A stretch of 64,000 nt of DNA. Origin: an uncultured Pseudomonadales bacterium (GTDB taxonomy: Bacteria > Patescibacteriota > Microgenomatia > UBA1400 > MFAQ01). Position 1 is the stretch's first letter. The number at the start of each line of letters is the position of its first letter. Under the pieces are notes generated by a model, which did no database searches, was not told the DNA's origin, and worked only from the letters and a program-made list of their open reading frames with translations. The position numbers were made by a program, and so were the translations under genes. Positions 27,036 through 53,326 of this stretch are shown here, in pieces. The stretch spans positions 47,007 to 111,006 of the forward strand of contig CAYHNG010000001.1 of assembly GCA_964357975.1 (NCBI GenBank), given 5' to 3'.

Positions 27036-27054
27036 TTATTTTTATGTTAGTAGT

Positions 27055-27088
27055 GTGAGATTCCTCCACTTCGGTCGGAATGACAAGG
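27055..27088. repeat. Hairpin repeat copy R3 (GTGAGATtcctccacttcggtcggaATGACAAGG), intergenic between the ferredoxin and radical SAM genes
   Basis: C(UUCG)G tetraloop hairpin flanked by GTGAGAT and ATGACA; 22 of 27 internal positions match R6. Confidence 0.75.
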
Positions 27089-27089
27089 T

Positions 27090-35364: not shown

Positions 35365-36495
35365 TTAGGCTACGAAGTAGCCGCGTGTGAAGAAAATGAT
35401 GGAGAGAATGGATAAAACGATGCAAGTGGCATAGAGACTGTACTTAATGAAGGGATGTTGTTTCTCGATCCAAAACGCCATGACCATGAACACCGGGAAA
35501 AGCACTAATGTAAATCGGGGCATGCTCATAAAGGTACCTGAAAATGTGGGCAGCAAGAAAGACAGCAAAACAAATAGCCAGTAAGAGAAACGAATTCTTC
35601 TAAAGAAAATAATTAAAGCGGTGACAATCAACACGGCCGAAAACAACTCCAAGACGACGGTAAAGTAGAGAGGGTCCCAGTCGGTAAAAATTAACATTTT
35701 GAAATAGCGGAAGAAGACCTGGTGGAGAAGAATTAGTTTGTCTACTGTCCGGCCACCAAAGACAGATTGAATGTGGAAAAAGAATAATGGATCTCCGGTT
35801 TTGAGATATTGAAAACGCATAAAAGAAAAAAGCCCTAGTGGAGGAAGAAGTAACCACAGAGCAGAAAAATTAACAGACTTTTTTATATCTTTGCCGTACA
35901 TGAGCCAGAACTCGTAAATAATGGAAGGCCAGAGAAAGATACCGGTGATCCGGGTGGCCGAAGCGATCGCGGCCACAACACAGGCCAGAAAAAAGTGTTG
36001 GCGGCGAATAAGGTAAAAAGTGAGAACCGTCAGTAGAAGAAACAAAGACTCGGTGTAGACCGAGCCAAAAAAGAAGGCCGTGGGAAATAAGAGTATCAAC
36101 ATAATAGTAAGGCGAGAGACCTTCTTAGTGAAGTCCAGCGCGGTTAGACGATAGAGGAAATAAAGAGCCAGGATGAGATAGACATGAGAGAGAAAGAGCC
36201 CCGAAGCCAGGTAATTGCCGAATAGATTGAAAGTTCTTACTGTCCAAGGATAAACCGGGAAGAAAGCATAGTCCATGTCGGTCTTGTGCTGATAGCCATA
36301 ACCAAACTGAGCAAGGTCAAGATAATGAAGGCCATCAAAGTTGGACCACATGGAAAAAATGTTTCCGACAGAGGGCTTTTCGGTGAGACTCGTGAAACGG
36401 GTACGGGGAGGCAGAAGAAACATGGCCGGGAGAGCGATGAGAATAATCAGAACTCGCCAACCTAAAACGAGTTTGAAGATTTCTTTGATGGACAT
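35365..36495 (-). CDS. Polytopic membrane protein, putative GT-C mannosyltransferase-like (PIG-V/DUF2029-like)
   Basis: 376 aa, about 10 TM helices, conserved HYLDLAQFGYGY loop; assignment tentative. Confidence 0.4.
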   Translation of the reverse strand: MSIKEIFKLVLGWRVLIILIALPAMFLLPPRTRFTSLTEKPSVGNIFSMWSNFDGLHYLDLAQFGYGYQHKTDMDYAFFPVYPWTVRTFNLFGNYLASGLFLSHVYLILALYFLYRLTALDFTKKVSRLTIMLILLFPTAFFFGSVYTESLFLLLTVLTFYLIRRQHFFLACVVAAIASATRITGIFLWPSIIYEFWLMYGKDIKKSVNFSALWLLLPPLGLFSFMRFQYLKTGDPLFFFHIQSVFGGRTVDKLILLHQVFFRYFKMLIFTDWDPLYFTVVLELFSAVLIVTALIIFFRRIRFSYWLFVLLSFLLPTFSGTFMSMPRFTLVLFPVFMVMAFWIEKQHPFIKYSLYATCIVLSILSIIFFTRGYFVA

Positions 36496-38177: not shown

Positions 38178-38276
38178 TTTTTGTCAGAGTCGATTGTTAC
38201 GGCTAATTCCCGACAATTCTGCATTCAAATTATATCGCATTTGGATAACTCCTATCCACGCGCCACCATTTTGGAT

Positions 38277-38303
38277 TGATAGGGAGAAAAGCTATGATAT
38301 AAT
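38277..38303 (+). promoter_or_regulatory. Sigma-70-like promoter with an extended -10 (TGaTATAAT) driving the small ORF
   Basis: TTGATA at 38277-38282 and TGATATAAT at 38295-38303. A divergent TATAAT for gltX lies on the other strand at about 38231-38236. Confidence 0.4.
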
Positions 38304-38337
38304 AGAGGTGTTACAAATTTAAGAAAAGGAGTATGTT

Positions 38338-38418
38338 ATGAATAACTTCGTTTATAACGCTGGTCCTGAGGACGAAGGTGACGATACTGAAGATGGTGGT
38401 GGGGGCTGGGAACACTAG
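38338..38418 (+). CDS. 26-aa acidic small ORF (MNNFVYNAGPEDEGDDTEDGGGGWEH) forming a mini transcription unit
   Basis: AAGGAG at 38326-38331, 6 nt upstream of the ATG; open for 26 codons to a TAG at 38416-38418; the terminator follows immediately. Confidence 0.4.
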   Translation: MNNFVYNAGPEDEGDDTEDGGGGWEH

Positions 38419-38438
38419 TATTGAGTGAGCATCCGAAC

Positions 38439-38462
38439 AACCGCCCAAACTGGGCGGTTTTA
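38439..38462. terminator. Rho-independent terminator hairpin (CCGCCCA-aac-TGGGCGG + TTTT), probably bidirectional
   Basis: 7-bp GC-rich stem followed by a T-run on the plus strand. It sits between the converging small ORF and the GT4 gene, overlapping the GT4 stop. Confidence 0.55.
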
Positions 38463-39500
38463 AATTGCGAGGTTTGATTGTTTCAGGACATTTTGATACA
38501 CGTCGAGGGTGAGGCGGGCGGTTTTGGACCAGGAAAATTCTTTGGCTTTATCTTTGGCCAATGAGATTTGCCTAGCTTTAGCACTGGAGGAAAGATGAAG
38601 CGCTTTATTTATGGATCTTTCCATTGATTTAAGTCTTTTAGGATTAAAGGTAATGGCTTCGTCGTGATAAATCTCCGGTAGGCTGGAGGTCTTCGAGCTG
38701 GCTATTAGGCAACCGGAAGTCATGGCCTCCAGAAGCGGCAAACCAAAGCCTTCGTAATATGATGGCTGAACATAGAGAGAGGCCAGATGGAACATGGTGT
38801 TGAAATCTTCGTTGCTGACATACCCGGGATAAATGACGTGGTTGTAAACTTGAAGGCGAACCAGGTCAATGAGCTCCGGGTGAACCGGCTTGACCACTTC
38901 TTTGAGCATTCCCTTTCCGACAATCACCAGAGGGATTCCCAGTCGGTCGGTAACTTCCGCAAGAGAGGGTAAATTTTTGTTGGGATTGGGTCCGGCCGCT
39001 AAAGTTAGGACAAATTTGTCAGGTAGATTGAACTTCTTCTTGACCTCGGCGAGCTTGGCCGGTGACGGAAGAACTTTGTAGTCATCATCAACCGCGAGCG
39101 GAGTAACAAAGATTTTTTCCGGAGAAACTCGAAAATACTTTTCGATATCCCGCTTGGAACTTTCGGAGTCGGTAATAATGGCTGAGACAGAGCGAAGCGA
39201 ATACCATTGTCGAAGTAGATTGATAGTGCCCTTGATCCCTTTGGGATAGCGAGCCGCCATAACCAGAGGAGTGAGATCGTGAATGGTGACAATGGTTGGT
39301 TTGTCTTTTTTTAGAGGCAGGGTGGGATAAAAAAGATCAAAGAAGGGATAGTGGATAATGTCGGGATCTTTGTCTGTTAATTTGACGTCGGAGAGTTTTC
39401 CCAAAGATTGGATTAGGTGGTCGGCATAAATGCCCACTCCCCTACCGGAAGAATGATCACCACCAGCAATAAAGACTTTAACGGGGGGCATATTCTTCAT
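38460..39500 (-). CDS. Glycosyltransferase family 4 (GT-B)
   Basis: EGFGLPLLEAMTSGCLIASS signature. Confidence 0.8.
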   Translation of the reverse strand: MKNMPPVKVFIAGGDHSSGRGVGIYADHLIQSLGKLSDVKLTDKDPDIIHYPFFDLFYPTLPLKKDKPTIVTIHDLTPLVMAARYPKGIKGTINLLRQWYSLRSVSAIITDSESSKRDIEKYFRVSPEKIFVTPLAVDDDYKVLPSPAKLAEVKKKFNLPDKFVLTLAAGPNPNKNLPSLAEVTDRLGIPLVIVGKGMLKEVVKPVHPELIDLVRLQVYNHVIYPGYVSNEDFNTMFHLASLYVQPSYYEGFGLPLLEAMTSGCLIASSKTSSLPEIYHDEAITFNPKRLKSMERSINKALHLSSSAKARQISLAKDKAKEFSWSKTARLTLDVYQNVLKQSNLAI

Positions 39501-40380
39501 CTTTATATAATTCCCAAAGCTTCATATAAGAAAAGGCATGGTGCAGACCGGAGTAAAGCGAAAATACAAAACCGGGAAAACCATCGAGGAAACCGCGGTA
39601 ACGGAAGTAGAGACCTAAGAAAGTAGCCAGTGGTTTGAAGAATAAATAGTTGAGAGTATTGAAGAAAGTAATTTTGACACCTGCGGTTTTCATTTGGGTA
39701 GCTTTGAGACTGGAATAGCGATTCTCTCGAAGAAGATAGCGCGAGAAAGTGGGTGTACCAAAATGGTTCATGTCGGACTTTAGCCAGCCGACAGTCCCAC
39801 GAACAACCATCTGTTCGTGAACGTCTTTTCCGGGAAGCTCGGCTTTACCTCTTTGGAAGAGCCTGATGACCGGATCCGGGTACTGTCCTGCATGCATAAG
39901 AACACCCTTTAAAAAGTAGTTCTTTCGGGGAAGCCAGTAGGCGGCGGCTGGCTCCCTCAGTATCTTTGGTTCAGGAAAAAACATGCCGACCGGCAGGCAG
40001 GCTTTTACAAATTTATTGACTGATTTTTTGAGAGGAGAGATCCAGGAATCATAGCCAGAATAGCTGCCATCGAGAATGCCAACAACTTCTCTCTTCATCT
40101 CGGGCGTGATCACCTCATCGGTGTCTAACTGTAAAATCCAATCTGATTTTGCGTGATCATTGGCAATTTTCTTTTGAATATGAAAAATGGGGCTGTTCTC
40201 GCGGATCAAGACTTTGGCGCCCAGCTTTTTGGCAATTTCGGCGGTTTTGTCTGTGGAAGTGCCGTCTACAACGATAATCTCGTCGACCCAATCCTTGACG
40301 GAATTCAGGCAATCGGCAATACAATCCTCGTTATTGTATGAGGCCATAGTGACCGAGATGGTTTGACGTTTGGATTTCAT
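39478..40380 (-). CDS. Glycosyltransferase family 2
   Basis: ISVTMASYNNED...DEIIVVDGTSTD...LQLDTDE; paralogous to 502-1437. Confidence 0.8.
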   Translation of the reverse strand: MKSKRQTISVTMASYNNEDCIADCLNSVKDWVDEIIVVDGTSTDKTAEIAKKLGAKVLIRENSPIFHIQKKIANDHAKSDWILQLDTDEVITPEMKREVVGILDGSYSGYDSWISPLKKSVNKFVKACLPVGMFFPEPKILREPAAAYWLPRKNYFLKGVLMHAGQYPDPVIRLFQRGKAELPGKDVHEQMVVRGTVGWLKSDMNHFGTPTFSRYLLRENRYSSLKATQMKTAGVKITFFNTLNYLFFKPLATFLGLYFRYRGFLDGFPGFVFSLYSGLHHAFSYMKLWELYKDEEYAPR

Positions 40381-42053
40381 TTGGTGGAGAGGAATTTGTA
40401 CATGGGATGGCCGGCGGGGTCGTTTATCGTATAAATAACGGCCTTGTCGTCGACCGACTCATCAGCTGAGATTATAAGGGTATTGGGCAGTTTTTTGTCC
40501 TCTCCGTAGTTAATGGAGCGAAATTCGAACTTGCCGAAGCTCCGGACGGTCGAAAAACCGAACTTGTCTCTGGGAGTCATGACTAGCTCTGACTGAAGTA
40601 CTCTTGGATCATACTTCAGGAAAAAGGCCATTAAAATATATGGCTGGTCGTAGCGGTCGGAGATGAGGATGCGATCGTAGTTGTAATACTGTTGACCTAC
40701 ATACTCTGCGATTTGGTCAAAGCCATACTGCCAGGCGTAAGGGAGTACTTTGGGATAATGGACATAGTAGAGGTGTAAGTACCTGGCTACCGAGTAGCCT
40801 CCAAAAAGAAACACAATGAAGCAAACACCGGATACCAACCATTTTTTCTGTGTCCTGAGCAAGAGGTTTACAAAGACCGCAAGACCGAGAGCCGAGATCA
40901 CTGAAAGAGGAATAACCATATTCTGAGAGCGCAACGCGTGGGGGGACTGAAAGGTGAGAGCGGCCGCCAGCGGAGAAATAAGGAACCAGATAAAAATAAA
41001 CTTTTTCCCTTTGGAATCTAATTTTAGTAGAGAGAAAAGTCCGAGAAAATAGAAGGGAACCAGGAATAGATAAGATTGTCCTGTTTCGGGAACCTTACTC
41101 CGGGCAATCTCGTCTCCGGTAACAAAAAGGAATCGGGGAGAAAAATGAGCTAAATAATTTTTGACAAATCTGAGACCATATGAAAGATATTGGTTGTGTA
41201 GCGCCTTGATGGCGATTGTTTCTTGTGGGTGTGCCCGGCGCATCTCCAATGCTTGCCAGAGAGGACCAGTATCGGAAAAGACCGAGACACCGGAAAAGCG
41301 GGACTGCCCTTCTTTGGAAAGAAGTTGACTGGCGATGGGCAAAGAAAGAAGAAGTCCGAGAAACACAGAAATCATTAGGGCGCGAATATTAGTGGAGACT
41401 AGTTGGCGCCAGTAGAGAATGACTAGCGTAAGAGCCAGAAGCGGAGAGATGATTCTGGCCGAGTGGTAGGTATATAGACTGACAGCAAAGGCCGTAACAA
41501 AAAGGTAAAAATATTTTGTCTGCTTGCCGGTAGGAACTGTTTTTTCGATAGCCTTAAAGAAGGACCATAGTCCGAGTAGGATGAAAAAAAGTGCAGCATT
41601 AACCTCCCAACCACCTCTTGAGAACTGAAGATGCCAGGGTGAAACCGCCAGGACAAGGGCTGATAATAATGCAAACCTCTTGGTTTTAACGTGACACTCT
41701 TCATCTTGAGTATCTTTCCGGAATAACAAATTAACGAGCAAAAATAATAAATAAACGGAGGCGGTGCCCAATAGCGCGGAAGGAAGGCGAACGGACCAGA
41801 CAGTGGGACCAAGTAGTTTAACAAAAGGCAGGACCAGATAAAAATAGACCGGTGGCTTGTAATCATCAAAGGATCTAAACACCAGGGGCCAAGAAACTGA
41901 GTGTTCGTCTTTGCCCGTTTCCAGAAGCGACCAGGCGTTGTAACCGATAGCGGCTTCATCGGCGTTTAGACCGGCCGGAAACCGGTCTAAAGCGAATAGT
42001 CTGAGGACTGATGCCAAAATGAGTATGAGGATGATGGGAAGATGTTTTTTCAT
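40377..42053 (-). CDS. PMT/GT39-family GT-C glycosyltransferase, tandem paralog 1 of 6
   Basis: MKKHLPIILILILASVLRLF...GLNADEAAIGYNAWSLLETGKDEH...FRSFDDYKPPVYFYL...SVRLPSALLG, about 11 TM helices and a roughly 130-aa C-terminal soluble domain. ATGA-coupled to the upstream gene. Confidence 0.75.
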   Translation of the reverse strand: MKKHLPIILILILASVLRLFALDRFPAGLNADEAAIGYNAWSLLETGKDEHSVSWPLVFRSFDDYKPPVYFYLVLPFVKLLGPTVWSVRLPSALLGTASVYLLFLLVNLLFRKDTQDEECHVKTKRFALLSALVLAVSPWHLQFSRGGWEVNAALFFILLGLWSFFKAIEKTVPTGKQTKYFYLFVTAFAVSLYTYHSARIISPLLALTLVILYWRQLVSTNIRALMISVFLGLLLSLPIASQLLSKEGQSRFSGVSVFSDTGPLWQALEMRRAHPQETIAIKALHNQYLSYGLRFVKNYLAHFSPRFLFVTGDEIARSKVPETGQSYLFLVPFYFLGLFSLLKLDSKGKKFIFIWFLISPLAAALTFQSPHALRSQNMVIPLSVISALGLAVFVNLLLRTQKKWLVSGVCFIVFLFGGYSVARYLHLYYVHYPKVLPYAWQYGFDQIAEYVGQQYYNYDRILISDRYDQPYILMAFFLKYDPRVLQSELVMTPRDKFGFSTVRSFGKFEFRSINYGEDKKLPNTLIISADESVDDKAVIYTINDPAGHPMYKFLSTK

Positions 42054-43708
42054 TAAGGTTTGGTTTTGATGACCCGAAAGAGAATGTGATGATCTGGAGT
42101 TTCGATTTGTCTAAACAGATCCACGTTAGGTCCGGTAATATCGAACTGATTGTTGATATTTCCCTCAGATCCGATAAAGAGAGTGTCTTTTTGAGTCATC
42201 ATGTCGGAAGAGCCAAACTGGTGGAACTCAACACTACCGACTTTGTCCACTTTTCCGACGTCCAAACCGCCGCTAATAAAATCGTTATTTTTTTGATAAG
42301 TAGCCGGGTCATATGCGGTGTAAAAAACGTAATAGATATATGGCTGACCGTAGACATCGGTAAAGACAACTTTCTTGGCCGGATGGTCTTTAATAATTTG
42401 AACTACCTGCTTGTAGCCGTAGTTGAACTCTTTGGAAAAGACAGTCTGGGAATGAAAAAAGTACACATCAAAGACGTATATTGCGCATAGGGTGTAGATA
42501 CCGGCAATGAGTGCGAAGAATATTTTTGAATTTGTATAAAGATAATAGATACCCAGACCAGCAATTATAGAGAGTGGAACAACCATAAAGAGAGCTCTGA
42601 CGGTGGAGAACTCAGCCAAAGTCAGTGAGGCGGGAATGGGCGAGATAAGAAGCAGTCCGAGAATTAATGCCGTTGTTCTGTCCGGGGTGTCATGACTACC
42701 TGGAGAAAGGTTTTTGACTAGCCAGATAAAACCTAGAACTAACCAGATGAACTCTAAAGGATTGAGCGCTCCCAATCCGGGAAGGTGTCCCCTTTCGGAA
42801 ACAATGGGGCCTTCGTAGAAGAGGACTTCGGGTGAAAAGTGATACAGATAACGGGAGAGAACAAGCCTAGTTGAAAGTTCTTTTTGGTTATGGAAAAGAT
42901 TTAAGGAGGTAGAATTTTGATTGTCTATCTCCCTTGTTATTTGGGGTATCCCCGGTTTGTAGTTGAAGATGCTCAGAGTTGTAAGCCGATTACCGGCGCT
43001 GCCAAATACAGAACCGAAGAAAATCCAGAGACCAAACAGAATAAATGGAAAAAGCGACAACAGCTTTTTGGGCTTTAGATATGGAGTAAAACTAGACCAA
43101 AATTCTTTCCAGTAAATAACAAGAAAAAGTAGAAAGACCAGAGGAGTTAAAAGTTTGGCCGCTTGGTACATGGCCAACGAGAGACAAGCCAATAGCAAAG
43201 AGGGGTAGAGAGCTGATTTTCCCTTTAGAAACCGGAGAAAATAGTAAAGAGCAAAAATGGTCAGCGTGGTGAAAACGTTTACTTCCCAAGCCCCGTGACC
43301 AAAGTGCACCGCCCACGGAGAAATAGCGAGGGCCAGAGCCGCAAAAGAACCTGGTTTGTGGGTGGATTTGGTGGAGAAAATTTCGTTAGTGAGAAGATAG
43401 ATGCCGAAGATGGCGAGAATGCCGGCAAGAGCGCTAGGGAAACGAACTGCAAATTCATTGAGACCAAAGATGGCCACCGAGGGGACCGCAAGATAAATAT
43501 AAGCACCTGGTTTGTAATCTCCAAAACTCTTGAAGACTAAGGGCAAGAAAGCGCCGTGTTCATCCCGCCCGGTCTTCAGCAGGGAGTAGGCGTTGTAACC
43601 GATGGCCGCCTCGTCCCAAGTGAGCCCGTTTGGGACGGACGACAATTGCCACAAACGAAGAAACGTTCCTAGTAGTAGGGCAATGATCAAAAGAATATAT
43701 TTCTTCAT
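42053..43708 (-). CDS. PMT/GT39-family GT-C glycosyltransferase, tandem paralog 2
   Basis: GLTWDEAAIGYNAYSLLKTGRDEHG...FKSFGDYKPGAYIYL; divergent C-terminal domain; TAATG coupling. Confidence 0.75.
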   Translation of the reverse strand: MKKYILLIIALLLGTFLRLWQLSSVPNGLTWDEAAIGYNAYSLLKTGRDEHGAFLPLVFKSFGDYKPGAYIYLAVPSVAIFGLNEFAVRFPSALAGILAIFGIYLLTNEIFSTKSTHKPGSFAALALAISPWAVHFGHGAWEVNVFTTLTIFALYYFLRFLKGKSALYPSLLLACLSLAMYQAAKLLTPLVFLLFLVIYWKEFWSSFTPYLKPKKLLSLFPFILFGLWIFFGSVFGSAGNRLTTLSIFNYKPGIPQITREIDNQNSTSLNLFHNQKELSTRLVLSRYLYHFSPEVLFYEGPIVSERGHLPGLGALNPLEFIWLVLGFIWLVKNLSPGSHDTPDRTTALILGLLLISPIPASLTLAEFSTVRALFMVVPLSIIAGLGIYYLYTNSKIFFALIAGIYTLCAIYVFDVYFFHSQTVFSKEFNYGYKQVVQIIKDHPAKKVVFTDVYGQPYIYYVFYTAYDPATYQKNNDFISGGLDVGKVDKVGSVEFHQFGSSDMMTQKDTLFIGSEGNINNQFDITGPNVDLFRQIETPDHHILFRVIKTKP

Positions 43709-45432
43709 GGAATAGAAGTAATTATAAACGCCGGAGACCCGTCTAAGTAATTCACCGTCTTAATGACATGGGCGTTGACCGGGACGTGACCCGCAGAAGT
43801 AATCAAGAGGCTTCTCTGTGTGGAGATCTCTCCTCCACTCTCCAGAGGAAGAGTCTTGATGGAAGTGACCGGAATCTGCCAATCGTTGACAAAATAAACA
43901 TTGTCTATCTTATCCGTCCAGTACCAATCCGATTTTTGGAAACGAATATTGTCTTTGTTTGGCTGAACAATTTTCGGCTCTATCCGATCAAAGAAGGCGT
44001 AAAAAATATGCGGCTCTCCGAAACGTTTGGTGATAAAAAAGCGATCGTATTCGTGCCGATGATCTTGGACATAGGTCATTACTTCCGCGTAGCCAAATTG
44101 CCAGGACGCAGAATAGGTAGTAGCATAATTCCCAAAATACTGTCTAAGGTAAAACCCGAAGGAGACACCAATCCACAGAGCCAACAAAATCAGAGAGAGT
44201 CTAGTAAATTTGTGAGGAATAAACCTCAACAGCCGGGATAAACCCAGACCGGCAAAAATAATGATGGCCGGGATCATAGGATTTGGACGGAGTGCTTGCG
44301 GAGGATCGATGGTCAGACTGGCCGCGACTGGGGAAAGGAGTAACCAAGCATAGAGGAATTTTAGAGATTCGGAACCTCGCAATAACGACAGGTGTGATAA
44401 AAAACCAAGAAGAGCCAGTAAGAAGACGGGGAGAGTTAAAAGGTTTTGGCCGGGAATGGCAAACTGGAACTGGGCCCCCCATTGTTGGGAGAAAAACTGA
44501 GGTGAGAAATAGCCGATATAGTTCTTGGTAAAAGTAGTGAAAAAATAAACAGGACGGTTATAAACCAATTTAGAGACGAGTGGACCCAGAGAACTTTGAG
44601 ACCTTTGCTCCCCAATTTGAAAAACAGTGGCCGGTGAAAGAATCTTGAGCTTTTCATAACGAGCCGTACCTGCCCCAAGAAAGACCTGATATATGACTAG
44701 CCCAGAGAAAAGGAGTGCGAGAACAAGAGAGGTGATTAGTGCAAAGTGGTTGGTGCGAGGTGCACGAAGATTGGGACGAAAAATAAGAAAAGAGACCACC
44801 ACGAGCAAAGGCACAAAGACGCGGGCAGTGTTGTAGGTATGCAGAGAGAGGCCTAACAGTATAACGGAGGGGAGTAAAGAGGTTTTTGTTTGGTGGATCC
44901 CCGCCTTCGCGAGGATGACACTATCGGAACTGTGGAAGAATTTTAGTAAGAAGTAGAAGCCGAAGATTATTAAAGTAAGAGATAGATTGGCTTCTAAGGC
45001 CGGGCGAGAGATGAAGAAATGCCAGGGAGAAATGGTGAGGAGAAGCGCAGTAATTAGTGCGAAGTGTTTGGTTTTTTGAGAAAAAAGCTCGCGGGTTAGA
45101 AAATAAATTCCCGGAATGGCAAGAGTGCCGGCGAGAGCAGAGATAAATCGAACCGAAAAAGTACTAAGACCAAAAAGCCAGACAGGAATGGTGGTGAGAT
45201 AAATATATAAAGGTAGCTTGTAATCCCCGAAGGCTCGAAAGATTAGAGGAAACCTAACTCCCCACTCGTCTCTCCCGGTGAGCAAAATGGAATAAGCATT
45301 GTACCCATGACTCGCTTCATCCCAATTCAAGGCGACGGGAAAAGCGTCTAATTTCCAAAAGCGGAGTAGACCACCAAGCAAGGTGAACAAAAACAGCAGT
45401 AATAGTGGCCGATTATTAATAATGGACTTCAT
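43705..45432 (-). CDS. PMT/GT39-family GT-C glycosyltransferase, tandem paralog 3
   Basis: ALNWDEASHGYNAYSILLTGRDEWG...FRAFGDYKLPLYIYL. Carries an in-frame copy of the 25-nt repeat, encoding SVILAKAGIH in a loop. Confidence 0.75.
   Translation of the reverse strand: MKSIINNRPLLLLFLFTLLGGLLRFWKLDAFPVALNWDEASHGYNAYSILLTGRDEWGVRFPLIFRAFGDYKLPLYIYLTTIPVWLFGLSTFSVRFISALAGTLAIPGIYFLTRELFSQKTKHFALITALLLTISPWHFFISRPALEANLSLTLIIFGFYFLLKFFHSSDSVILAKAGIHQTKTSLLPSVILLGLSLHTYNTARVFVPLLVVVSFLIFRPNLRAPRTNHFALITSLVLALLFSGLVIYQVFLGAGTARYEKLKILSPATVFQIGEQRSQSSLGPLVSKLVYNRPVYFFTTFTKNYIGYFSPQFFSQQWGAQFQFAIPGQNLLTLPVFLLALLGFLSHLSLLRGSESLKFLYAWLLLSPVAASLTIDPPQALRPNPMIPAIIIFAGLGLSRLLRFIPHKFTRLSLILLALWIGVSFGFYLRQYFGNYATTYSASWQFGYAEVMTYVQDHRHEYDRFFITKRFGEPHIFYAFFDRIEPKIVQPNKDNIRFQKSDWYWTDKIDNVYFVNDWQIPVTSIKTLPLESGGEISTQRSLLITSAGHVPVNAHVIKTVNYLDGSPAFIITSIP
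44896..44920. repeat. Hairpin repeat copy R5 (identical 25-mer to R1), in-frame inside PMT paralog 3
   Basis: Exact 25/25 match to 25365-25389. Encodes SVILAKAGIH in an inter-helix loop of the 43705-45432 protein. Confidence 0.8.
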
Positions 45433-47119
45433 AATAAAGAGGTTCGCCGGAAGGCAAGCTAATTATGTCACCAATCGCAGCCACAGAACGAATATCACTG
45501 GTGTCTACCTCCGGGCGGGTCAGATAATAGTGGGCATTGGGAAGAGGGTTGATGGGCTTGTTTTGGTAATCAATCATGGTGGCAATATAAAGATCGGAGT
45601 CCCCTATCCTGTTTCCGTCCAAATTGAAGTTTCCCGAAGTAGAGTTGTAGACAGTGTGCTGTAGTTCAAACTCTTGAAATTTGCGTGGGTTAAAACCGGT
45701 GTAATAAAGATAAAAAATCAAAGGGTATTCGTACTTGGGAGAAATGATCACCGGTTCACCAGGATGCCGACTGACGGATTGCATAAGTTCTTGCATTCCG
45801 GCGCTCCATGATCTTTCTGAGGTATAGCGATAATGAGACCAATAGTCATGTAGATATAAAGAGGAATCGGCAAAAAGTAAAAGAAGTACTAAAGCCGTTA
45901 GCCACTTTGAGTAAGAGAACAACTGATCAAAACCAAAAGAGACAACCAAGACCAAAGGCAGTATGAGCATAAAAATCCGAGAGGAATGGGTGGCTCCATC
46001 TCTCGTCAGAGCAGAAGGAAGAATGGCGGCAACGGAAAGGACTACGACAAAAAGGAGGAACTTGGCGTGTTTCCCTGCGGCTAATCGGTAAAGACCATAA
46101 AGCAGGGGAATAAGAAGGGCTTTCTCCAGCATGCCCCAACCCTGCACCGCGTGTCGAGGATTCGTATCCCCTTGAAGGAAGAGATAGTCGAAAGAGATGG
46201 GACTGACGACATTTTTGATAAACACCTGAAGAACGGACAAAACTTTGTTATGGGTGGCTTTACTAATTAGGTCGGTAGTTGAGCCAACCGGTGCTGATGG
46301 ACCAAGATCTTCTTTCCTCAAAAAATTAATTTCGGTAGGTATCGTGGGGTCGGTAAAAATAGAGATCTCGTTGAAACGCCTAGCAGCTCCACCGTTGATA
46401 ACTACCACCCCTAGAGGAATAAAGAGAATAATTAGCCATAGAGAAAGTTTCTTTCCCCACAAATGTTCTTTGGTACCAGGAAGGAGGAGGAGAACTAGGG
46501 GGATAAAAAGTAGAGCCAATTTGGCCGTGCTGTAGATCATAGGAGTAAGAGAAAACAATATCAAAGAGACGATAATAGCCCAGACTCTTTTGTGGATTAA
46601 GAAATGAGTGTAGAAAAATAAACCGGCCAGATAAACCGTAAATAACATAGAGAGCTCAAAGCCTATACGAGAGTAAGTAAAGTGCCAGGGAATAATTGAC
46701 AAAACCAAAGCAGACCAAAAACCGAAAGAGGATCCGGTTTTTGGGGATGAAAATCCAAATAATTTAGAGAGATTATTAGCCAGGAAAAATATCGCCACGA
46801 TTCCTAGTATGGAGAAAATGGCCGGAGTAAGGCGAATAGCCAAATCCATAGTAACACCAGGTATCAGTGAGACTAGGGCGGTAGCGTATATGGGTAAGGC
46901 TGTGCGAACATCAGAAAAAGAGTGAAACTGCAGAGGAAGGAAATTTCCTTGATAATCTTTTCCCGTCGACAAAAAGGAACGGGCTTGATAACCGATGTCC
47001 ACCTCATCGGAAAAAAGACTGATCGGATTTTGTTGTAAGCCGGATAGCCTAAGACTAGCTCCTACCAGAAGAACCAAGAATAATGGCCAGTACCGGCTAA
47101 AGAGGTCTTTTATTTTCAT
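45416..47119 (-). CDS. PMT/GT39-family GT-C glycosyltransferase, tandem paralog 4
   Basis: SLFSDEVDIGYQARSFLSTGKDYQG...FHSFSDVRTALPIY. Confidence 0.7.
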   Translation of the reverse strand: MKIKDLFSRYWPLFLVLLVGASLRLSGLQQNPISLFSDEVDIGYQARSFLSTGKDYQGNFLPLQFHSFSDVRTALPIYATALVSLIPGVTMDLAIRLTPAIFSILGIVAIFFLANNLSKLFGFSSPKTGSSFGFWSALVLSIIPWHFTYSRIGFELSMLFTVYLAGLFFYTHFLIHKRVWAIIVSLILFSLTPMIYSTAKLALLFIPLVLLLLPGTKEHLWGKKLSLWLIILFIPLGVVVINGGAARRFNEISIFTDPTIPTEINFLRKEDLGPSAPVGSTTDLISKATHNKVLSVLQVFIKNVVSPISFDYLFLQGDTNPRHAVQGWGMLEKALLIPLLYGLYRLAAGKHAKFLLFVVVLSVAAILPSALTRDGATHSSRIFMLILPLVLVVSFGFDQLFSYSKWLTALVLLLLFADSSLYLHDYWSHYRYTSERSWSAGMQELMQSVSRHPGEPVIISPKYEYPLIFYLYYTGFNPRKFQEFELQHTVYNSTSGNFNLDGNRIGDSDLYIATMIDYQNKPINPLPNAHYYLTRPEVDTSDIRSVAAIGDIISLPSGEPLYYEVHY

Positions 47120-48789
47120 TTGTACTTCGGATTCGTTTTTAATATTCTCAAGGCCACCTTTCCGTCGGGAAAGGGTATTTCTTTGATTATAGACAAATTG
47201 TGATCTTTTATTTGAACTTCCGACATGGCTAGATAGTCTGCTACCAAATACTGCTCTACAGCGTCCGTGTCGGGTCCCCAGACAATACTTTTAACGGTAA
47301 TATTTCCCAGTTTTTTGGTGTCGCTTCTGTTGAGACTGGTATAGTAATCTGCGGCTGAGACCTCAAAGTTTTCGCGTTGGTAGAGAGCGGGGTCGTATTT
47401 GAGGAAAAACATCATCAGGATATAACTATCTCCTCGCGAACTGTCCACCACGATGGGAAGTTGTGGATTAAGACCGGGAATCTCTTTGACTACCAACTCC
47501 CAACCATAGTTCCAGAACTTGGAATTGAAATAATCGTTAAAGTAAAAAATGGAGATAAACATCCTCACCGACGAAAAAATCACGAGAAGAGTAATGAGCG
47601 ATAATTTCAACTTTGAAGATATGGATGGAAGAATCTCCCAGAGTTTAATAAGACCAAAAGAAATAATCAGAATCTGGGGAATAACCAAAGGAAGCGATCG
47701 AAGAGTTGAGTAAGGATCTCTTGTGAGGGCGGCGGGAATGGGAGACGCTAGGAGAAGTGTAAAAACATAGAAAGTAAGATCTTTCAGGTGTCTTTCTTTG
47801 AAGAGAAAATACAACCCAATCAGATATAGAGGGAATTGCCAAACAAAAAAAGTTCCCAGACCGGGATAGGGCAATCGAGGTCCCGAGTCCCCCAGAGAAA
47901 ACATATAGCGGGGGGAAAGATAAGAACCATAGAGGGAAAGGAACTCCTTAAATGCCAAAATCTGAGGATTGTTTGTGAGATCGTGAACGAGACCTTTTCC
48001 CTCCTGATAACCCCAAACATTTTTCCCTGAAGCGGCAAAAATATTTAAGGCGGCTGAGCGCGCCTGGAAACCGGGAGTTCCGATAATTTGAAGAGTTGGA
48101 AGAAAAATAACGAAGGCTAAGACCAAACTAACAAGAATTGGGGTTAGATGATGTTTTAGTTCAGAAAATATGACCGGGGAATAGCGTAGTACGAACACAA
48201 CGAGGAGTACGGGGACGATAATTATTTCTGCCCGATAGGCCATCATGGAAATCACAAAAGATAAAGCGGCCGGAAGAAATAACCAAGATTTTTTAAGAGC
48301 ACTCATGATAAAAGGAGATCCCAGCAATAAGAAAAACAAAGCGACGTTGGCTTCATAAGCCGTACGACTATAGTTAATATGCCATGGAGAAATGGCCAGG
48401 AGAAAAGTAGTTACTAGTGCAAGGTGGTTGGTGCGAGGTGCAAGCTGACGGACCAGCAGATAGAGCAAGGGTAGGCTAAGAAAACCGAAAAGGGCTGATG
48501 GAAGTCTGACCGAGAAAACAGAGAGATCTAAAAAATGAATGATAGGAATCAGAAGGTAGGAATAAACCGGGCTCTGAAAAGTGGAAAAGGAGCGAAACAT
48601 GACGGGCAACCACTTGCCATACTCGTCCATGTCGGTTTTGAAGACTGAATAAGCGTTGTAGCCAAGTGAAGCCTCGTCCACGTACAGTCCGAGCGGAGTT
48701 TGCCCTAGTTTGTAAAAGCGGAAGAAGGCTCCAAGCAACAAAGCCAAAAATAAGAGAATCGCCGGTAGATATTTATTTGCTTGTTTCAT
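47116..48789 (-). CDS. PMT/GT39-family GT-C glycosyltransferase, tandem paralog 5
   Basis: GLYVDEASLGYNAYSVFKTDMDEYG...FRSFSTFQSPVYSYL. Confidence 0.75.
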   Translation of the reverse strand: MKQANKYLPAILLFLALLLGAFFRFYKLGQTPLGLYVDEASLGYNAYSVFKTDMDEYGKWLPVMFRSFSTFQSPVYSYLLIPIIHFLDLSVFSVRLPSALFGFLSLPLLYLLVRQLAPRTNHLALVTTFLLAISPWHINYSRTAYEANVALFFLLLGSPFIMSALKKSWLFLPAALSFVISMMAYRAEIIIVPVLLVVFVLRYSPVIFSELKHHLTPILVSLVLAFVIFLPTLQIIGTPGFQARSAALNIFAASGKNVWGYQEGKGLVHDLTNNPQILAFKEFLSLYGSYLSPRYMFSLGDSGPRLPYPGLGTFFVWQFPLYLIGLYFLFKERHLKDLTFYVFTLLLASPIPAALTRDPYSTLRSLPLVIPQILIISFGLIKLWEILPSISSKLKLSLITLLVIFSSVRMFISIFYFNDYFNSKFWNYGWELVVKEIPGLNPQLPIVVDSSRGDSYILMMFFLKYDPALYQRENFEVSAADYYTSLNRSDTKKLGNITVKSIVWGPDTDAVEQYLVADYLAMSEVQIKDHNLSIIKEIPFPDGKVALRILKTNPKYK

Positions 48790-49605
48790 TTATTTAAGAA
48801 TAATTCGGGCCAATTCCATGAGGGATAGAGGCAGGAATAAAAAAGAGAAAAAGAGATAATACACTGAAGGAAGCGTAAAGATTTTTCTGAGGCCTAGCAA
48901 ACAGATGAGAGAGATGGGCAGATACAAAACCAGATCAAACTTGTCTGGGTTATTGATTAGAGCAATGGAAAATATTCCGGCTAGGAGTGTAGACAATATC
49001 CACGTCCGACTCCTACTCTTGACCAAGAAATAGAGCCCCACCAGGAAGGGAATTATGGCAGAGAATGAGAACTTTTGGAGGTTTTGGTTTTCGAAAATTT
49101 CTCGAGGATGGAGAGAAAAGAAATAATTATTTTGATCCAGGGAAGTAAAAATATTAGCCTTGAATTTATCCTGAAAAATATCGGTTTTGTTGTGATAAAG
49201 TCTGGCAAGGTTTCTACTGGGGATGAGGGAAATCTTTTTGTTTAAAGTATCGAAGGCTAGAGGGTCAGGGGTAAAAATAGAGTAAGCATAAAAGGTCTTC
49301 CAAGAAAATAGAGAAATAAATATTAGGATAACGGCGTAAATAACCAGAGACGTCTTTTTGAAATCAGACCAGTAAAAAATGGTGATGATAACCGGAAATA
49401 ATAAATAGGCCGGGTGAATTAGTGGCAAAACCAAATAAGCAAAATAATGATATTTGAATTTCTTAGTGTAAAGAAGCCAGTCAATCGACAAAACTAAGGC
49501 GGCGACGATAAAAATGGCCGAGTCGGTACGACTCGCTAAAATCAAAGAAAGCGGCCAGAAGATAAAGATGAGGATGGCGGATGTCCAAAAAATTAGATTC
49601 TTCAT
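48790..49605 (-). CDS. Small polytopic membrane protein (HNKTD-motif family), unknown function
   Basis: About 8 TM helices. The loop LARLYHNKTDIF is shared with 51309-52013. The track start at 49614 is a TTG; the ATG at 49605 (MKNLIFW) is preferred. Confidence 0.5.
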   Translation of the reverse strand: MKNLIFWTSAILIFIFWPLSLILASRTDSAIFIVAALVLSIDWLLYTKKFKYHYFAYLVLPLIHPAYLLFPVIITIFYWSDFKKTSLVIYAVILIFISLFSWKTFYAYSIFTPDPLAFDTLNKKISLIPSRNLARLYHNKTDIFQDKFKANIFTSLDQNNYFFSLHPREIFENQNLQKFSFSAIIPFLVGLYFLVKSRSRTWILSTLLAGIFSIALINNPDKFDLVLYLPISLICLLGLRKIFTLPSVYYLFFSFLFLPLSLMELARIILK

Positions 49606-49629
49606 GATAGTCAATTAGAATTATATGCG

Positions 49630-51312
49630 TTATCGATCGGAAACGGCATATAAGCCTGAAGACCGGTTGAGAAAGGGTACGAATAAACGCTGTTTGGAGG
49701 AACCAAGAATCTCTTTGGGTAGGCTCCACGGACCGGCAATATAGAGATTATCTTGACCGTGATCGATGTCCGGCCAGTTGATGGGTGTAAAAAGATAATT
49801 ATCGAAGTCGCTTCCACCAAGCTTTCTGCGAGGATCGGAATTGTAAATATTTGGGTCATACTGTGAATAAAAGAGGAAGTAGAGAAACGGAACGCCGTAG
49901 GTATAGGGACCTTGCGTACCGAATTGAGGGTCGACGTAAACTCGGTCGTACTCCCCGTGATGCTCACCGGCAAAAATGGCCACCTGTTTCCAGCCGAAAG
50001 ACCTGGTTTCCGAAAGCTCCACCGGATAGTGAAGGGTATAGAAGTCCATGAATCGGACTATGCCAAAAAGATAGCCGGCGATAACCAGGACAAGCAAGAG
50101 ATGTTTCATTGTGTTGGTGCGTACTGCACCCAAGCATTGCGTAAGCCCGAGAGCAATAAGGATAGAAATTACAGGGACTACATTTAGGGTCCGCAGTGAG
50201 TGCTGGCTGTTGTTGGTGATAGAGGCCGGCAAGAAAGAGAGAAGAAACCAAACGAGAAGGATCCGAGTAACAAAGCTTTCGGTGATAGAGGCATTGAAAA
50301 ATTTCTTGGACGAGAGTAAAAGCCAGAAACCAATGAGGAGAAAGGGGTACTCGATGGCCAAGATCACTCCCTGACCGGGCCAGCCCGGTGTAGACAGACC
50401 AAGCCCGTTTCCGAGATAAAAATTGGCGGAAAAATATTCCATAAATCTTTTGAACCATAAACCAGCGAGTCCAATGATGGAGGTAAATGAAGCGAGGGGG
50501 TGGTAAGAAAACTTCGGTAAAAGACCATTGGTATAGTCGTAATCTTTTGACAAAAAGGTCATGCCGGCTCTGGATGCTCCCGGACCGATGATAAAGTTTT
50601 GAACAAAGAAGAAAGTGACGCCAAAGAAAAGAACACCGGTGATCAAGAGAGAGACCTTATCCTTCCGGTACCATCCGGTAAGACAGTGAAGAAAGTATCG
50701 ATAATCAGCCAGAATAAAGAAAATGTTGAGGAGAGGCACAACGATTTTGGTAGAGTGATAGGTAATGGCCGAGAGATAGGCAAAGACGAACATAAAAAAG
50801 AAATGAAGCAAACGGCCCGACTTTCGAAACTCAAAGAGAAAGAGCAGATTGGCCAGCAAAAAAGTAAGGGCAAGAACGGCCTCGAAACCGGAACGAGAAA
50901 AAACAATCAACCAGGGAGATAAAGAGAAAAGAAGAGCGGTTAAATAAGACAAGAGTGAATATTTTTGGTTAAAAATATGCCGCCTAGTTAGATACCAAAG
51001 TAGAAAAATGTTGAAGGCGGAGAAAATGGCCACCGGAAGCCGCACACTCCATTCATTTAGACCCAGAAGCCAAACAAAGGGAACTGTCAGATAAACAAGC
51101 ACCGGTGCCTTATAGTCCCCGACCGAACGGAAAGAAATCGGAAACGGGATTCCCCACTCATCCTTACCGGTTTTCAAGATAGAAAAAGCGTTATAACCGA
51201 TGGAGACTTCGTCGATGGTTAAATGTGGCGGGTACTCGGTTAGTCGATAAAGGCGGGTAAAGTAGGTGATAACGAGGATGATGACCCAAAATAATATTTT
51301 CTGTTTGGTCAT
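49630..51312 (-). CDS. PMT/GT39-family GT-C glycosyltransferase, tandem paralog 6
   Basis: HLTIDEVSIGYNAFSILKTGKDEWG...FRSVGDYKAPVLVYL. Confidence 0.75.
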   Translation of the reverse strand: MTKQKILFWVIILVITYFTRLYRLTEYPPHLTIDEVSIGYNAFSILKTGKDEWGIPFPISFRSVGDYKAPVLVYLTVPFVWLLGLNEWSVRLPVAIFSAFNIFLLWYLTRRHIFNQKYSLLSYLTALLFSLSPWLIVFSRSGFEAVLALTFLLANLLFLFEFRKSGRLLHFFFMFVFAYLSAITYHSTKIVVPLLNIFFILADYRYFLHCLTGWYRKDKVSLLITGVLFFGVTFFFVQNFIIGPGASRAGMTFLSKDYDYTNGLLPKFSYHPLASFTSIIGLAGLWFKRFMEYFSANFYLGNGLGLSTPGWPGQGVILAIEYPFLLIGFWLLLSSKKFFNASITESFVTRILLVWFLLSFLPASITNNSQHSLRTLNVVPVISILIALGLTQCLGAVRTNTMKHLLLVLVIAGYLFGIVRFMDFYTLHYPVELSETRSFGWKQVAIFAGEHHGEYDRVYVDPQFGTQGPYTYGVPFLYFLFYSQYDPNIYNSDPRRKLGGSDFDNYLFTPINWPDIDHGQDNLYIAGPWSLPKEILGSSKQRLFVPFLNRSSGLYAVSDR

Positions 51313-52013
51313 AGCTTAAAGTAGGCGGTGATATTCAGCTGGTACAGAAGGTAGACGATATTGGCTATCAGAAAACCAAGCTGAGTCTTTTTTGAAGTTG
51401 TAGAAAAGCCGACAACAGAGAGGAGGGCGAGAAAAAAGAGCACGGCGAAACTAAAGACAAGTGCTTGGTCTACGTAGATAAGACCGGTGAGTAAAAGGAG
51501 AAGGCTCAGAGCCGGAACAAAAAAGTATAAATTGTGAACAGGTTTTTCCCGATGAGCAAAACGAAAATAACGATAAAGAAAATAAATATCCCACGGAAAA
51601 AGATAGCCTAACGGATAGTACTGGTCTAGCCGGTGCCAAAACCCTGAGGCAAAAAGCGCCATTGGGGACAAGAGTTTGTCGAAGTTGTTGATGAAGGTGA
51701 GAGACAGGTCCGTTTTGTTATGAATTAACCTGGAAAGGAGACTGCTTTGGAACTGAGGATGTTCCCCCCTTTGAGCATTGATAGCATTCAGTAAACCCAG
51801 ATCAAGGCCGAGTCGTGGCTTTAGGATAGTCAAGGCAAAGACGATGAGCGCCAGAAAAATAAGAAATTGACCAAGAGATGGTTTTTGGAAAAGATTAAAA
51901 AGTAGATATCCAAGCGATAAGGAGAGAAAAAGAAATAAGGGAGGTTGTCCGGAGAAGACGATAAAAGGTATTAACAAAAGATAGAGAAAGCCAAAGAGGC
52001 CAATTTTTGGCAT
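51309..52013 (-). CDS. Small polytopic membrane protein (HNKTD-motif family), unknown function
   Basis: LSRLIHNKTDLSLTFINNFDKL loop; paralog of 48790-49605. Confidence 0.5.
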   Translation of the reverse strand: MPKIGLFGFLYLLLIPFIVFSGQPPLFLFLSLSLGYLLFNLFQKPSLGQFLIFLALIVFALTILKPRLGLDLGLLNAINAQRGEHPQFQSSLLSRLIHNKTDLSLTFINNFDKLLSPMALFASGFWHRLDQYYPLGYLFPWDIYFLYRYFRFAHREKPVHNLYFFVPALSLLLLLTGLIYVDQALVFSFAVLFFLALLSVVGFSTTSKKTQLGFLIANIVYLLYQLNITAYFKL

Positions 52014-52015
52014 AT

Positions 52016-53266
52016 CTACTTAAGGTGTCCCCTCCTCCTTGTTTGAAGAAGGTCGAAAATAAGAAAGAGACTGACGCCGGCAAACAGACTTCTCACTGAG
52101 CTTTTCAAGAAAACCAAGTCTGTTTTGGCCGCTAAAAGTTTATCAATACCGGGAAAATTATTTAAGCTTTGGTTGATCACGGCGAAAAGCCCTACAGAAA
52201 GAGAGTTATCGAACGTAAGGACAATAAAGATGTAACAGGCAAGTAGCGTCAAATGGAGCCAGAGGTTGCGCCACCGATTGGCGACCAACTCAATAACGAT
52301 GAAAGGAGAAACCCAAAGAAACCACTGGGGGTGGTAATGAGTGACCGAAAAGAGAAGAAGAAAATAACCCAGATAATATTTCCATAATTTCTGAATTGGG
52401 TGGGAAGCCCGGAAGGCGTGTAAGTAGATGAGAACCACTCCGAGAAGATAAGGATAGACACCTTCGGCGGCAGTCACCATCCATTCCATATAGAACATCT
52501 TTTGTGATTTGGCGCCAAATACCATGTACTTGAACGCTGATGAGGACAGAAAGGGAGCAATGGTGAGGAAATATGGAACTAAGCCACAAAGGGCAATCTT
52601 CAGACGATCCCAAAAATCTTTACCGGCAAAGATAATAAAGGGGAGAAGAAAGATGGGATATTGTTTGTAGGCGGCACCTAAAGAAATCATTACAGCCGCC
52701 AGATAAAGATTTTTCCTTTTGGCGAAATAGAGAGAAAGGACGGTGAATAGTGCCGGGATTATATCGAAAACACCCATGGAAAAAGTGGCGTAGAAAGTGA
52801 CCGGATTAAATAACCAGAGCAGGAATGCCCACTTCTTTTGTTTCTCTTCATCGAAAAGGGAGGCCAAAGCAAAAGCCATGCCGATATCGATCAGAAGATA
52901 GGGGAGTTTTAAAAGGATTAGGTTAAAAGATAAATTGGGAAGGGTATATACCGACACTCCACTCATCAAGTCCAAAAAGAACTTTTCCGGGATTATCCAA
53001 GAAAACATTTTGAGAAAACTGCCCAGTGTGAAGTATGTCAGAGGCGGATAGATAAATATGTCCCCTACTCCGAAATTTTGTACTAACGGATGAGTAGTCG
53101 GGAGACTAACGAGATGGTCGTAAATATTGGAAACGTTTTTGTAAGCAAAAAAGTAACTGGTCAGTACCTGTCCGGAGAGATCGGGGTGAAAAGTGATACC
53201 CATGACGACGAGCCGTAGAATAATGGCGACGATTAGAGCTACCCAAAGCGCTTTGGTGAGTTTCAT
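52016..53266 (-). CDS. Polytopic membrane protein, putative GT-C glycosyltransferase (DUF2029/GT87-like)
   Basis: 416 aa, about 11 TM helices, conserved HPD...Y loop near the N-terminus; tentative. Confidence 0.4.
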   Translation of the reverse strand: MKLTKALWVALIVAIILRLVVMGITFHPDLSGQVLTSYFFAYKNVSNIYDHLVSLPTTHPLVQNFGVGDIFIYPPLTYFTLGSFLKMFSWIIPEKFFLDLMSGVSVYTLPNLSFNLILLKLPYLLIDIGMAFALASLFDEEKQKKWAFLLWLFNPVTFYATFSMGVFDIIPALFTVLSLYFAKRKNLYLAAVMISLGAAYKQYPIFLLPFIIFAGKDFWDRLKIALCGLVPYFLTIAPFLSSSAFKYMVFGAKSQKMFYMEWMVTAAEGVYPYLLGVVLIYLHAFRASHPIQKLWKYYLGYFLLLFSVTHYHPQWFLWVSPFIVIELVANRWRNLWLHLTLLACYIFIVLTFDNSLSVGLFAVINQSLNNFPGIDKLLAAKTDLVFLKSSVRSLFAGVSLFLIFDLLQTRRRGHLK

Positions 53267-53326
53267 TTTGATGATTTAGTATACCAAGTCCTGAAGTAAG
53301 GATGAAATATTTGTTAGAATTGGAGG

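Follow-up and report, generated by a model that had tools for sequence, protein, structure and literature searches.

A conserved tandem array of GT-C-type glycosyltransferase paralogs in Candidatus Collierbacteria, with a possible role in stepwise surface-glycan assembly

The 64-kb window examined here (the whole stretch of DNA analysed, 64,000 nucleotides of contig CAYHNG010000001.1) comes from a member of Candidatus Collierbacteria, within the Microgenomates of the Candidate Phyla Radiation (CPR)/Patescibacteria. It carries a tandem array of six paralogous genes, g6 to g1, whose products are, as judged from sequence profiles and a structural model, glycosyltransferases (GT) of the GT-C_A fold belonging to the PMT_2 superfamily. 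The six-gene order recurs in related Collierbacteria, and its g3-g2-g1 core in relatives from several candidate phyla, each paralog being kept together with its own version of the C-terminal domain. We hold it to be an evenly balanced proposition that this operon encodes specialised lipid-linked-sugar transferases which divide the labour on one surface glycoconjugate.

Results

Organisation of the gene run

Eleven coupled minus-strand open reading frames (ORFs) form one run of about 14.8 kb, from 53266 down to 38460, in which the gaps between neighbours do not exceed 24 nt. In the direction of transcription, the order is a GT87-like gene (y2), a half-size paralog (y1), g6, a second half-size paralog (s), g5 to g1, a GT2 gene (x2) and a GT4 gene (x1) (Table 1). 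Neighbouring genes meet in ATGA overlaps, at one TAATG junction, in one 17-nt overlap and in one direct abutment, and two spacers, of 2 and 24 nt, separate the others; among the six GT-C genes the overlaps measure 1, 4 or 17 nt. A first-pass annotation of this DNA had described six back-to-back genes of 551-575 amino acids (aa) at 40377-51312, joined by ATGA, TAATG or 17-nt overlaps, and all of this was found again on the minus strand. It had also placed two small HNKTD-motif proteins inside the array: one of them, s, does interrupt it, while the other, y1, lies just upstream of g6 and outside that interval. A promoter and terminator scan of 37900-53600 gave counts no different from those of shuffled sequences, and it is from the gene overlaps that we infer a single operon. 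We take the GT87-like y2 to be a GT-C enzyme of the MptA/MptB/PimE kind. For x2, a role as a lipid-sugar synthase of the GtrB/ArnC type was considered and ruled out, because the protein has no transmembrane helices.

Family, fold and predicted active site

A profile built on the six paralogs scored 660-770 bits on each of them and 30 bits on the next ORF of the window (5674-7140), which confirms the paralogy proposed by the first-pass annotation; pairwise identity among the six is 26-32%. Five of the six (g1, g2, g3, g5 and g6; 28-45 bits) passed the gathering cut-off of Pfam PMT_2 (PF13231), which stands at 26.1 bits, and the assignment of the core to the PMT/ArnT-type families was thereby upheld. 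The more precise GT39 label was not, since no match to PMT (PF02366) or PMT_4TMC (PF16192) was obtained at E<=0.01 with any of the six; a precomputed PF02366 match is present on some distant orthologs. NCBIfam provided no functional equivalog, the six paralogs having only matches far below cut-off (Agl23, ArnT, STT3, LA_3751); the ArnT model NF009784 matched g3 only, with 15.7 bits against a cut-off of 567. When the PDB was searched by sequence with a 43-homolog profile, ArnT (5ezm/5f15) was the only match, with an E value of 0.08.

Ten residues are invariant in all six paralogs (g1 numbering): R18, D32, E33, G37, Y38, D49, R89, E150, R252 and R375. Among them, D32-E33, D49, E150, R252 and R375 are also invariant across the 43 homologs, and the conserved N-terminal motif reported earlier holds in all six proteins. 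Every invariant residue, the D-E pair included, is kept in g4. The AlphaFold2 model of g2 (predicted local distance difference test (pLDDT) 85, predicted template-modelling score (pTM) 0.87) shows 11 transmembrane helices followed by a C-terminal alpha/beta domain. In this model, D32-E33 is placed between helix 1 and a juxtamembrane helix, which forms the first outer loop together with a hairpin, and helix 8 is preceded by a long outer loop (about 236-318), flexible in part. D32-E33 is probably the catalytic acidic pair of the first extracytoplasmic loop, R252 and R375 would be compatible with phosphate binding, and all six paralogs look catalytically competent.

A Foldseek search with the g2 model returned GT-C matches with E values of about 1e-5, in agreement with the structural comparison, for which two unlabelled figures per structure are reproduced as given: STT3B, 20.2 and 382; ArnT, 19.8 and 393; Pmt4, 19.5 and 326; ALG12, 18.3 and 400; AglB, 17.4 and 388; PglB, 15.6 and 376; AftD, 13.3 and 333; AftA, 12.8 and 366; EmbA, 8.4 and 389. 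Sequence identity is 13-14% to STT3B, ArnT and Pmt4, and 9-16% across all the structures compared. As the structural and sequence distances to STT3B, ArnT and Pmt4 are similar, the family is equally distant from GT66, GT83 and GT39.

Each of these three families departs from the array in its own way. The oligosaccharyltransferases (GT66; STT3/PglB/AglB) have a WWDYG motif and a C-terminal domain of more than 200 aa, whereas neither WWD nor W[WA]D[YWF]G occurs in any of the six proteins and their C-terminal domain has 130 aa. ArnT (GT83), the undecaprenyl-phosphate-L-Ara4N:lipid A transferase, resembles the paralogs in size and in its C-terminal extracytoplasmic domain; it differs by an identity of 13% and by 13 helices, against 11 predicted here. 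A lipid A acceptor would not be expected in this organism, given what CPR envelopes are like. The GT39 protein O-mannosyltransferases (PMTs: Pmt1/2/4 and bacterial Pmt) have in common with the array the loop-1 DE motif, 11 helices, a C-terminus on the outside and the occurrence of paralog families, those of the PMTs forming defined pairs. In contrast, the paralogs here have neither PF02366/PF16192 nor a MIR domain, 326-335 residues align structurally, and the GT2/GT4/GT87 context is atypical of PMTs. In the g2 model, no MIR (beta-trefoil) domain is seen and the C-terminal alpha/beta domain is the sole soluble one.

Conservation and age of the array

The scan of species-representative genomes gave more than 584 relatives, and the locus analysis covers the 80 best loci, whose hosts are Collier-, Woese-, Shapiro-, Ames- and Daviesbacteria as well as other Patescibacteria. 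By local profile search, 3-7 same-strand tandem members were present in nearly every sufficiently long locus, and by best-hit assignment g3-g2-g1 occupied the last three positions almost everywhere. Orthologs of g1, 39-81% identical, were found in all 80 loci, and g3 had a position-matched best match in nearly all. In 53 of 68 loci, the gene immediately after the g1 ortholog is the GT2, and in 45 of 68 the GT4 comes after the GT2; the core g3-g2-g1-GT2-GT4 extends across Woese-, Shapiro-, Ames- and Daviesbacteria. Genes resembling y2 lie upstream in 16 related loci.

Over 49 distant genomes, position-matched identity is 42-48% against 30-35% otherwise (for g3, 42% against 30-31% to other positions), which indicates that the duplications predate the Collier-, Woese-, Shapiro-, Ames- and Daviesbacteria lineages. 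Paralogs within one genome are 31-35% identical, and non-matched members between genomes 30-34%; this equality argues that there has been no concerted evolution.

Closer to the window, a protein on a 150-kb NCBI/ENA contig matches g2 with 100% identity, two proteins from metagenome-assembled genomes (MAGs) of Candidatus Collierbacteria match it with 90% and 84%, and full-length orthologs range from 50 to 90%. A JGI contig (L001) reproduces the 11-gene order exactly, with a counterpart of y2 at the matching position; the counterpart in another locus (L002) also matches MptA_B_family. The six-gene order is identical in L001 and in L003-L006, and the Collierbacteria genome UBA2277 has a similar array, with 53% identity. 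Clear orthologs of g4, g5 and g6 are confined to close Collierbacteria; identities are 62-85% for g6 and 55-81% for g5, and the g4 orthologs have 567 aa in L001, L003 and L004. In L003 (Collierbacteria UBA12020), the g3 ortholog looks cut to 190 aa; a pseudogene was ruled out, the cause being an assembly artefact at an NN scaffold gap (L003 7001-7002). Separately, many loci (L006, L009, L013-L019, L022-L024 and others) carry Microgenomates-type arrays 42-74% identical to the window, in third-party MAG records of the ENA titled 'uncultured Gammaproteobacteria' or 'uncultured Pseudomonadales'; these titles look taxonomically wrong. Literature searches turned up no account of this array or of its family for the CPR, and one Microgenomates genome paper only mentions '29 glycosyl transferases'.

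The contrast between a fixed g3-g2-g1 triplet and g4-g6 with upstream members that vary by lineage would suit parallel, alternative decorations: each paralog would attach its own side-chain sugar to a common polymer, or draw on its own lipid-linked donor in doing so, in the manner of Gtr, Csd and YfhO-type systems, and g4-g6 would make the surface differ between species. In Lactococcus lactis and Listeria, different polymers are indeed served by several GT-C enzymes of the PMT_2 type (PMC8035078). In such systems, however, each GT-C normally has a GT2 donor synthase to itself, where a single soluble GT2 is found here, and the core triplet has been preserved as one block. We therefore regard this explanation as unlikely.

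Paralog-specific C-terminal domains

Identity between paralogs falls along the chain, from 42% in the first 150 aa to about 24% in the remaining membrane part, 26% at 426-485 and 16% in the last 73 aa. The C-terminal domains (C-domains) are 15-26% identical to one another, and all six align as one domain (17-26% identity to g2); modelled in isolation, that of g2 is a small alpha/beta domain of about 130 aa with a pLDDT of 92. The different C-terminal domains of the earlier description are thus homologous and not unrelated. The (E/Q)PYI.Y.F..YDP hinge said to be shared by all keeps its strict form in g1 and g2 alone, is degenerate in g3-g6, and was modelled as a helix inside the C-domain.

Among close orthologs, C-domain identity is 0.78-0.96, and only 5 of 34 paralog-by-genome comparisons give a higher value for the membrane core than for the C-domain (C-domain against core: 0.91 against 0.75 for g1, 0.96 against 0.88 for g2, 0.92 against 0.80 for g5). 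This contradicts the hypervariability that the earlier description ascribed to these domains. In distant orthologs, identity is 0.35-0.60 for the tail and 0.34-0.61 for the mid-membrane regions. Core-based and C-domain-based assignments of the paralogs concur in 212 of 217 confident cases. By these alignments, the C-domains are paralog-specific and constrained, neither hypervariable nor shuffled. What remains of the proposed variable acceptor-facing domains is that each paralog has its own extracytoplasmic version, which fits paralog-specific substrate recognition.

A single nucleotide patch is common to g3 and g5. It measures 48 nt, is 81% identical with a longest exact stretch of 19 nt, and lies at non-homologous positions; its identity to the homologous helix of g3 itself is 67%. 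The patch encodes APRTNH(F/L)AL(I/V)T, a motif with which a membrane helix begins in this family, and in g3 it stands within a variable, indel-rich loop. At this g3 site, the L001 ortholog has a related sequence and that of L004 has none. No other repeat reaches 25 nt, and the patch may be an old ectopic micro-conversion. The first-pass annotation had singled out a nucleotide-identical 17-mer at 44745 and 48426 as a possible mediator of gene conversion. The copy at 48426 exists, the other lies at 44748, and both belong to this single patch; as a recombination substrate the 17-mer was rejected, there being only one short patch at non-homologous positions.

These data bear on the idea of a recombination-prone surface-variation locus, in which the paralogs would swap segments by gene conversion and thereby vary their exposed C-domains. 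The g3/g5 patch is the point in its favour, yet it falls in the membrane part and not in the C-domain, and no second repeat accompanies it. Close orthologs agree best in their C-domains, which travel with their cores, the paralogs within a genome have not been homogenised, and gene order is kept across candidate phyla. Programmed variation is thus scarcely tenable, and we consider this proposal of the earlier description essentially refuted.

C-domains that are paralog-specific yet conserved would also suit a battery of PMT-like protein O-glycosyltransferases, each selecting its set of acceptors (pilins, S-layer protein, sortase substrates) through its own C-domain. This alternative can call upon the DE motif of loop 1, as in PMTs, upon the PF02366 match of some orthologs, and upon Caldicellulosiruptor, where a bacterial GT39 enzyme is reported to glycosylate secreted proteins (PMC6151902). 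It is weakened by the failure of all six paralogs to match PF02366 or PF16192, by the equal closeness of ArnT and STT3, by the fact that known O-mannosylation needs one PMT and no fixed GT2/GT4/GT87 operon, and by the absence of a serine/threonine-rich substrate gene from the operon. Furthermore, in Gram-positive bacteria the GT-C enzymes of the PMT_2 type pass sugars from C55-phosphate-linked donors to lipoteichoic acid, wall teichoic acid and wall polysaccharides rather than to proteins (PMC8035078), so that a Pfam match of this name is in itself no sign of protein O-glycosylation. The first-pass annotation was right about GT-C enzymes with paralog-specific outer domains; the protein acceptor that it added does not follow from PMT_2, and we judge it a rather unlikely alternative.

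Half-size paralogs

Neither y1 nor s has a Pfam match, and their NCBIfam matches lie far below cut-off. In a phmmer search, y1 (68-230) matched full-length family members over GT-C positions of about 237-405, and hhalign aligned it with the g1-ortholog profile at a probability of 96.4% (E 1e-9). For the s family, the corresponding values were 96.9% and 1.7e-10, with s 101-267 on g1 249-424. Both families thus map to g1 from about 250 to 425, a region made up of the long outer loop, which bears the HN motif, and the last four helices, and both are without the DE loop and without the C-domain. In a 1.84-billion-protein library, the s family comprises about 160 clusters of proteins of 190-280 aa, and s orthologs lie at the matching position in L001 and L003-L006. 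Since s has its own protein family and its position is kept in relatives, it is not a decaying fragment. On these profile matches, y1 and s are newly recognised, standalone half-size GT-C paralogs, and without the catalytic loop they are probably non-catalytic partners. The ORF at 62668-63948 was considered as a further half-size paralog; hhalign gave 91% against the g1-ortholog profile and 16% against the six-paralog profile, and it is not claimed.

Half-size proteins without a catalytic loop, and a translational coupling that favours stoichiometric co-production, could indicate a hetero-oligomeric GT-C machine in which paralogs and half-size proteins are subunits of one complex, as in Pmt1-Pmt2 or EmbA-EmbB. 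Against such a machine, every catalytic-site residue is kept in all six paralogs, and paralog number varies from 3 to 7 between genomes. We consider this possibility decidedly improbable.

Genomic surroundings

About 35% of the window codes for GT-C-type membrane proteins. The PMT-like gene announced at 5674-7140 does encode a PMT_2 protein. Five ArnT-like genes had also been announced elsewhere, which was not borne out: the large genes at 12352, 16192, 17835 and 25404 encode other enzymes, and further GT-C-type genes lie at other positions (Table 1). A sugar-modification cluster extends from 15396 to 28399 and includes two B12 radical-SAM enzymes, AsnB, four methyltransferases, an epimerase and several GT2 and GT4 enzymes. 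Within the glycan island, there are also DUF3800 and staphylococcal-nuclease-like proteins, at 28463-29104 and 3204-3740. Directly downstream of the operon (36495-38177 and 34139-35242) lie housekeeping genes for a glutamyl/glutaminyl-tRNA synthetase-type enzyme and S-adenosylmethionine synthetase, with the weak PMT_2 protein of 376 aa between them; these neighbours suggest that the island is chromosomal and not obviously mobile. A tRNA scan of the window found none.

Table 1. Positions of the gene run, of the shared patch and of other features of the window.
Feature	Position	Strand	Size	Description
y2	52016-53266	-	416 aa	Polytopic membrane protein, GT87-like GT-C; first in run; Pfam GT87 28.7 bits (cut-off 25 bits)
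y1	51309-52013	-	234 aa	Standalone half-size paralog (by profile); motif LIHNKTD; 4-nt overlap with g6
g6	49630-51312	-	560 aa	GT-C paralog; PMT_2 29.4 bits; all family-invariant residues kept
s	48790-49605	-	271 aa	Standalone half-size paralog (by profile); motif LYHNKTD; ATG start at 49605
g5	47116-48789	-	557 aa	GT-C paralog; PMT_2 28.5 bits
g4	45416-47119	-	567 aa	GT-C paralog, most divergent of the six; no Pfam match at E<=0.01; 686 bits to six-paralog profile
g3	43705-45432	-	575 aa	GT-C paralog; PMT_2 35.9 bits; third-from-last position of the Microgenomates-wide core
g2	42053-43708	-	551 aa	GT-C paralog, structure modelled; PMT_2 45.3 bits
g1	40377-42053	-	558 aa	GT-C paralog, always last GT-C of the array; PMT_2 37.3 bits
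x2	39478-40380	-	300 aa	GT2 (GT-A fold); Pfam Glycos_transf_2 65.9 bits; no predicted transmembrane helix
x1	38460-39500	-	346 aa	GT4 (GT-B fold), closes run; Pfam Glycos_transf_1 and Glyco_transf_4
Patch in g3	44717-44764		48 nt	aa ~223-238, APRTNHFALITS...; contains the 17-mer of the first-pass annotation
Patch counterpart in g5	48395-48442			aa 116-131, start of the conserved 'AL..LLAISPWH' helix
NTP-transferase	12352			
B12-binding radical-SAM enzymes	16192-17772; 25404-27035			
Asparagine synthase (AsnB)	17835-19670			
NAD-epimerase/dehydratase	23375-24322			
GT2 with C-terminal membrane helices	27356-28399			Candidate lipid-sugar synthase
Wzx-like flippase	30020-31270			
Further PMT_2 genes	5674-7140; 32714-34117; 53327-54877			
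Weak PMT_2 protein	35365-36495		376 aa	
YfhO gene	57731-59986			
Probable distant relative	59954-61588			
Large polytopic proteins	1442-3313; 7149-9590			Without family match

Discussion

In the stepwise assembly that we propose, cytoplasmic enzymes would make a lipid-linked primer, and each GT-C paralog would contribute a sugar or linkage of its own while one surface glycoconjugate is extended or decorated. All characterised GT-C enzymes use polyprenyl-phosphate-linked donors; by analogy, each paralog would take its sugar from such a donor at the outer side of the cytoplasmic membrane and transfer it to the acceptor. The product would be a wall polysaccharide, a lipoglycan or a teichoic-acid-like polymer. 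A division of labour is suggested by the long maintenance of each paralog with its own C-domain, in a fixed order and beside GT2, GT4 and GT87-like genes, and it is the explanation that an ancient, fixed and translationally coupled order fits best. The Wzx-like flippase, the membrane-anchored GT2, YfhO and the many sugar-modifying genes of the window were counted in the same direction.

Several observations weigh against this proposal. No GtrA-type flippase and no membrane-anchored polyprenyl-phosphate-sugar synthase was found among the operon genes, the GT2 having no transmembrane helix. In addition, wide conservation concerns only g3-g2-g1, and the lineage-restricted g4-g6 would also fit accessory decorations or alternative acceptors. 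Finally, Pmt4 is structurally as close as ArnT, and a protein acceptor is still compatible with the data. Protein O-glycosylation, parallel decorations and a hetero-oligomer are not fully exclusive of stepwise assembly.

For stepwise action, the closest analogies would be the mycobacterial enzymes PimE, MptA, MptB, Emb and Aft, the ALG3/9/12 enzymes and the Gram-positive multi-component systems. In the embCAB/Aft/PimE-MptA-MptB set and in ALG3/9/12 of the endoplasmic reticulum, several GT-C enzymes (in tandem in embCAB) perform one defined step each on a wall glycan or a lipid-linked one after cytoplasmic GT4 steps, and the array has a GT87-like member as well. However, Emb and AftD have twice the size and contain carbohydrate-binding modules, identity is 9-14%, and they belong to another phylum. 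Thus, the tandem arrangement of embCAB-type arrays (GT53) is found here, whereas their size of about 1,100 aa (551-575 aa here) and their C-domain fold are not.

Gram-positive bacteria have multi-component transmembrane glycosylation systems (PMC8035078) that resemble the array in the PMT_2 domain, in a polytopic GT-C with an acidic outer-loop motif, in a monoderm-type envelope and in a neighbouring GT-A-fold glycosyltransferase, and a Wzx-like flippase and YfhO lie in the island of the array. These systems consist of one GT-C, one membrane-linked GT2 and GtrA, whereas 3-7 GT-C, a soluble GT2, a GT4 and a GT87-like gene occur here and GtrA is missing from the operon; the likeness is one of domain and context, without sequence-level orthology. 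The three-component GtrA/GtrB/GT-C system was likewise not found in the operon, a GT2 with helices and the Wzx-like protein lying elsewhere in the window.

A bolder extension of stepwise assembly would make the array, its GT87-like leader and the two catalytically dead half-size paralogs a Microgenomates-specific extracytoplasmic machine that makes the main surface polymer of these ultrasmall cells. In it, g3-g2-g1 would form an obligatory relay or complex, the modules made of the outer loop and transmembrane helices 8 to 11 would be new non-catalytic GT-C subunits, for example for lipid-carrier or acceptor handling, and the protein family would merit a CAZy-level GT-C family of its own. We regard this extension as speculative and unlikely to hold.

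The genomes of CPR/Patescibacteria are tiny, and yet about one third of this window is devoted to GT-C-type enzymes. An array of 3-7 genes in fixed order across candidate phyla points to a conserved surface glycoconjugate, and, as these organisms live attached to other cells, such a polymer is likely to be important to their envelope. The six paralogs belong to a distinct and functionally uncharacterised GT-C family of Microgenomates, whose paralog-specific, conserved outer domains and half-size paralogs may offer handles on acceptor choice by GT-C enzymes.

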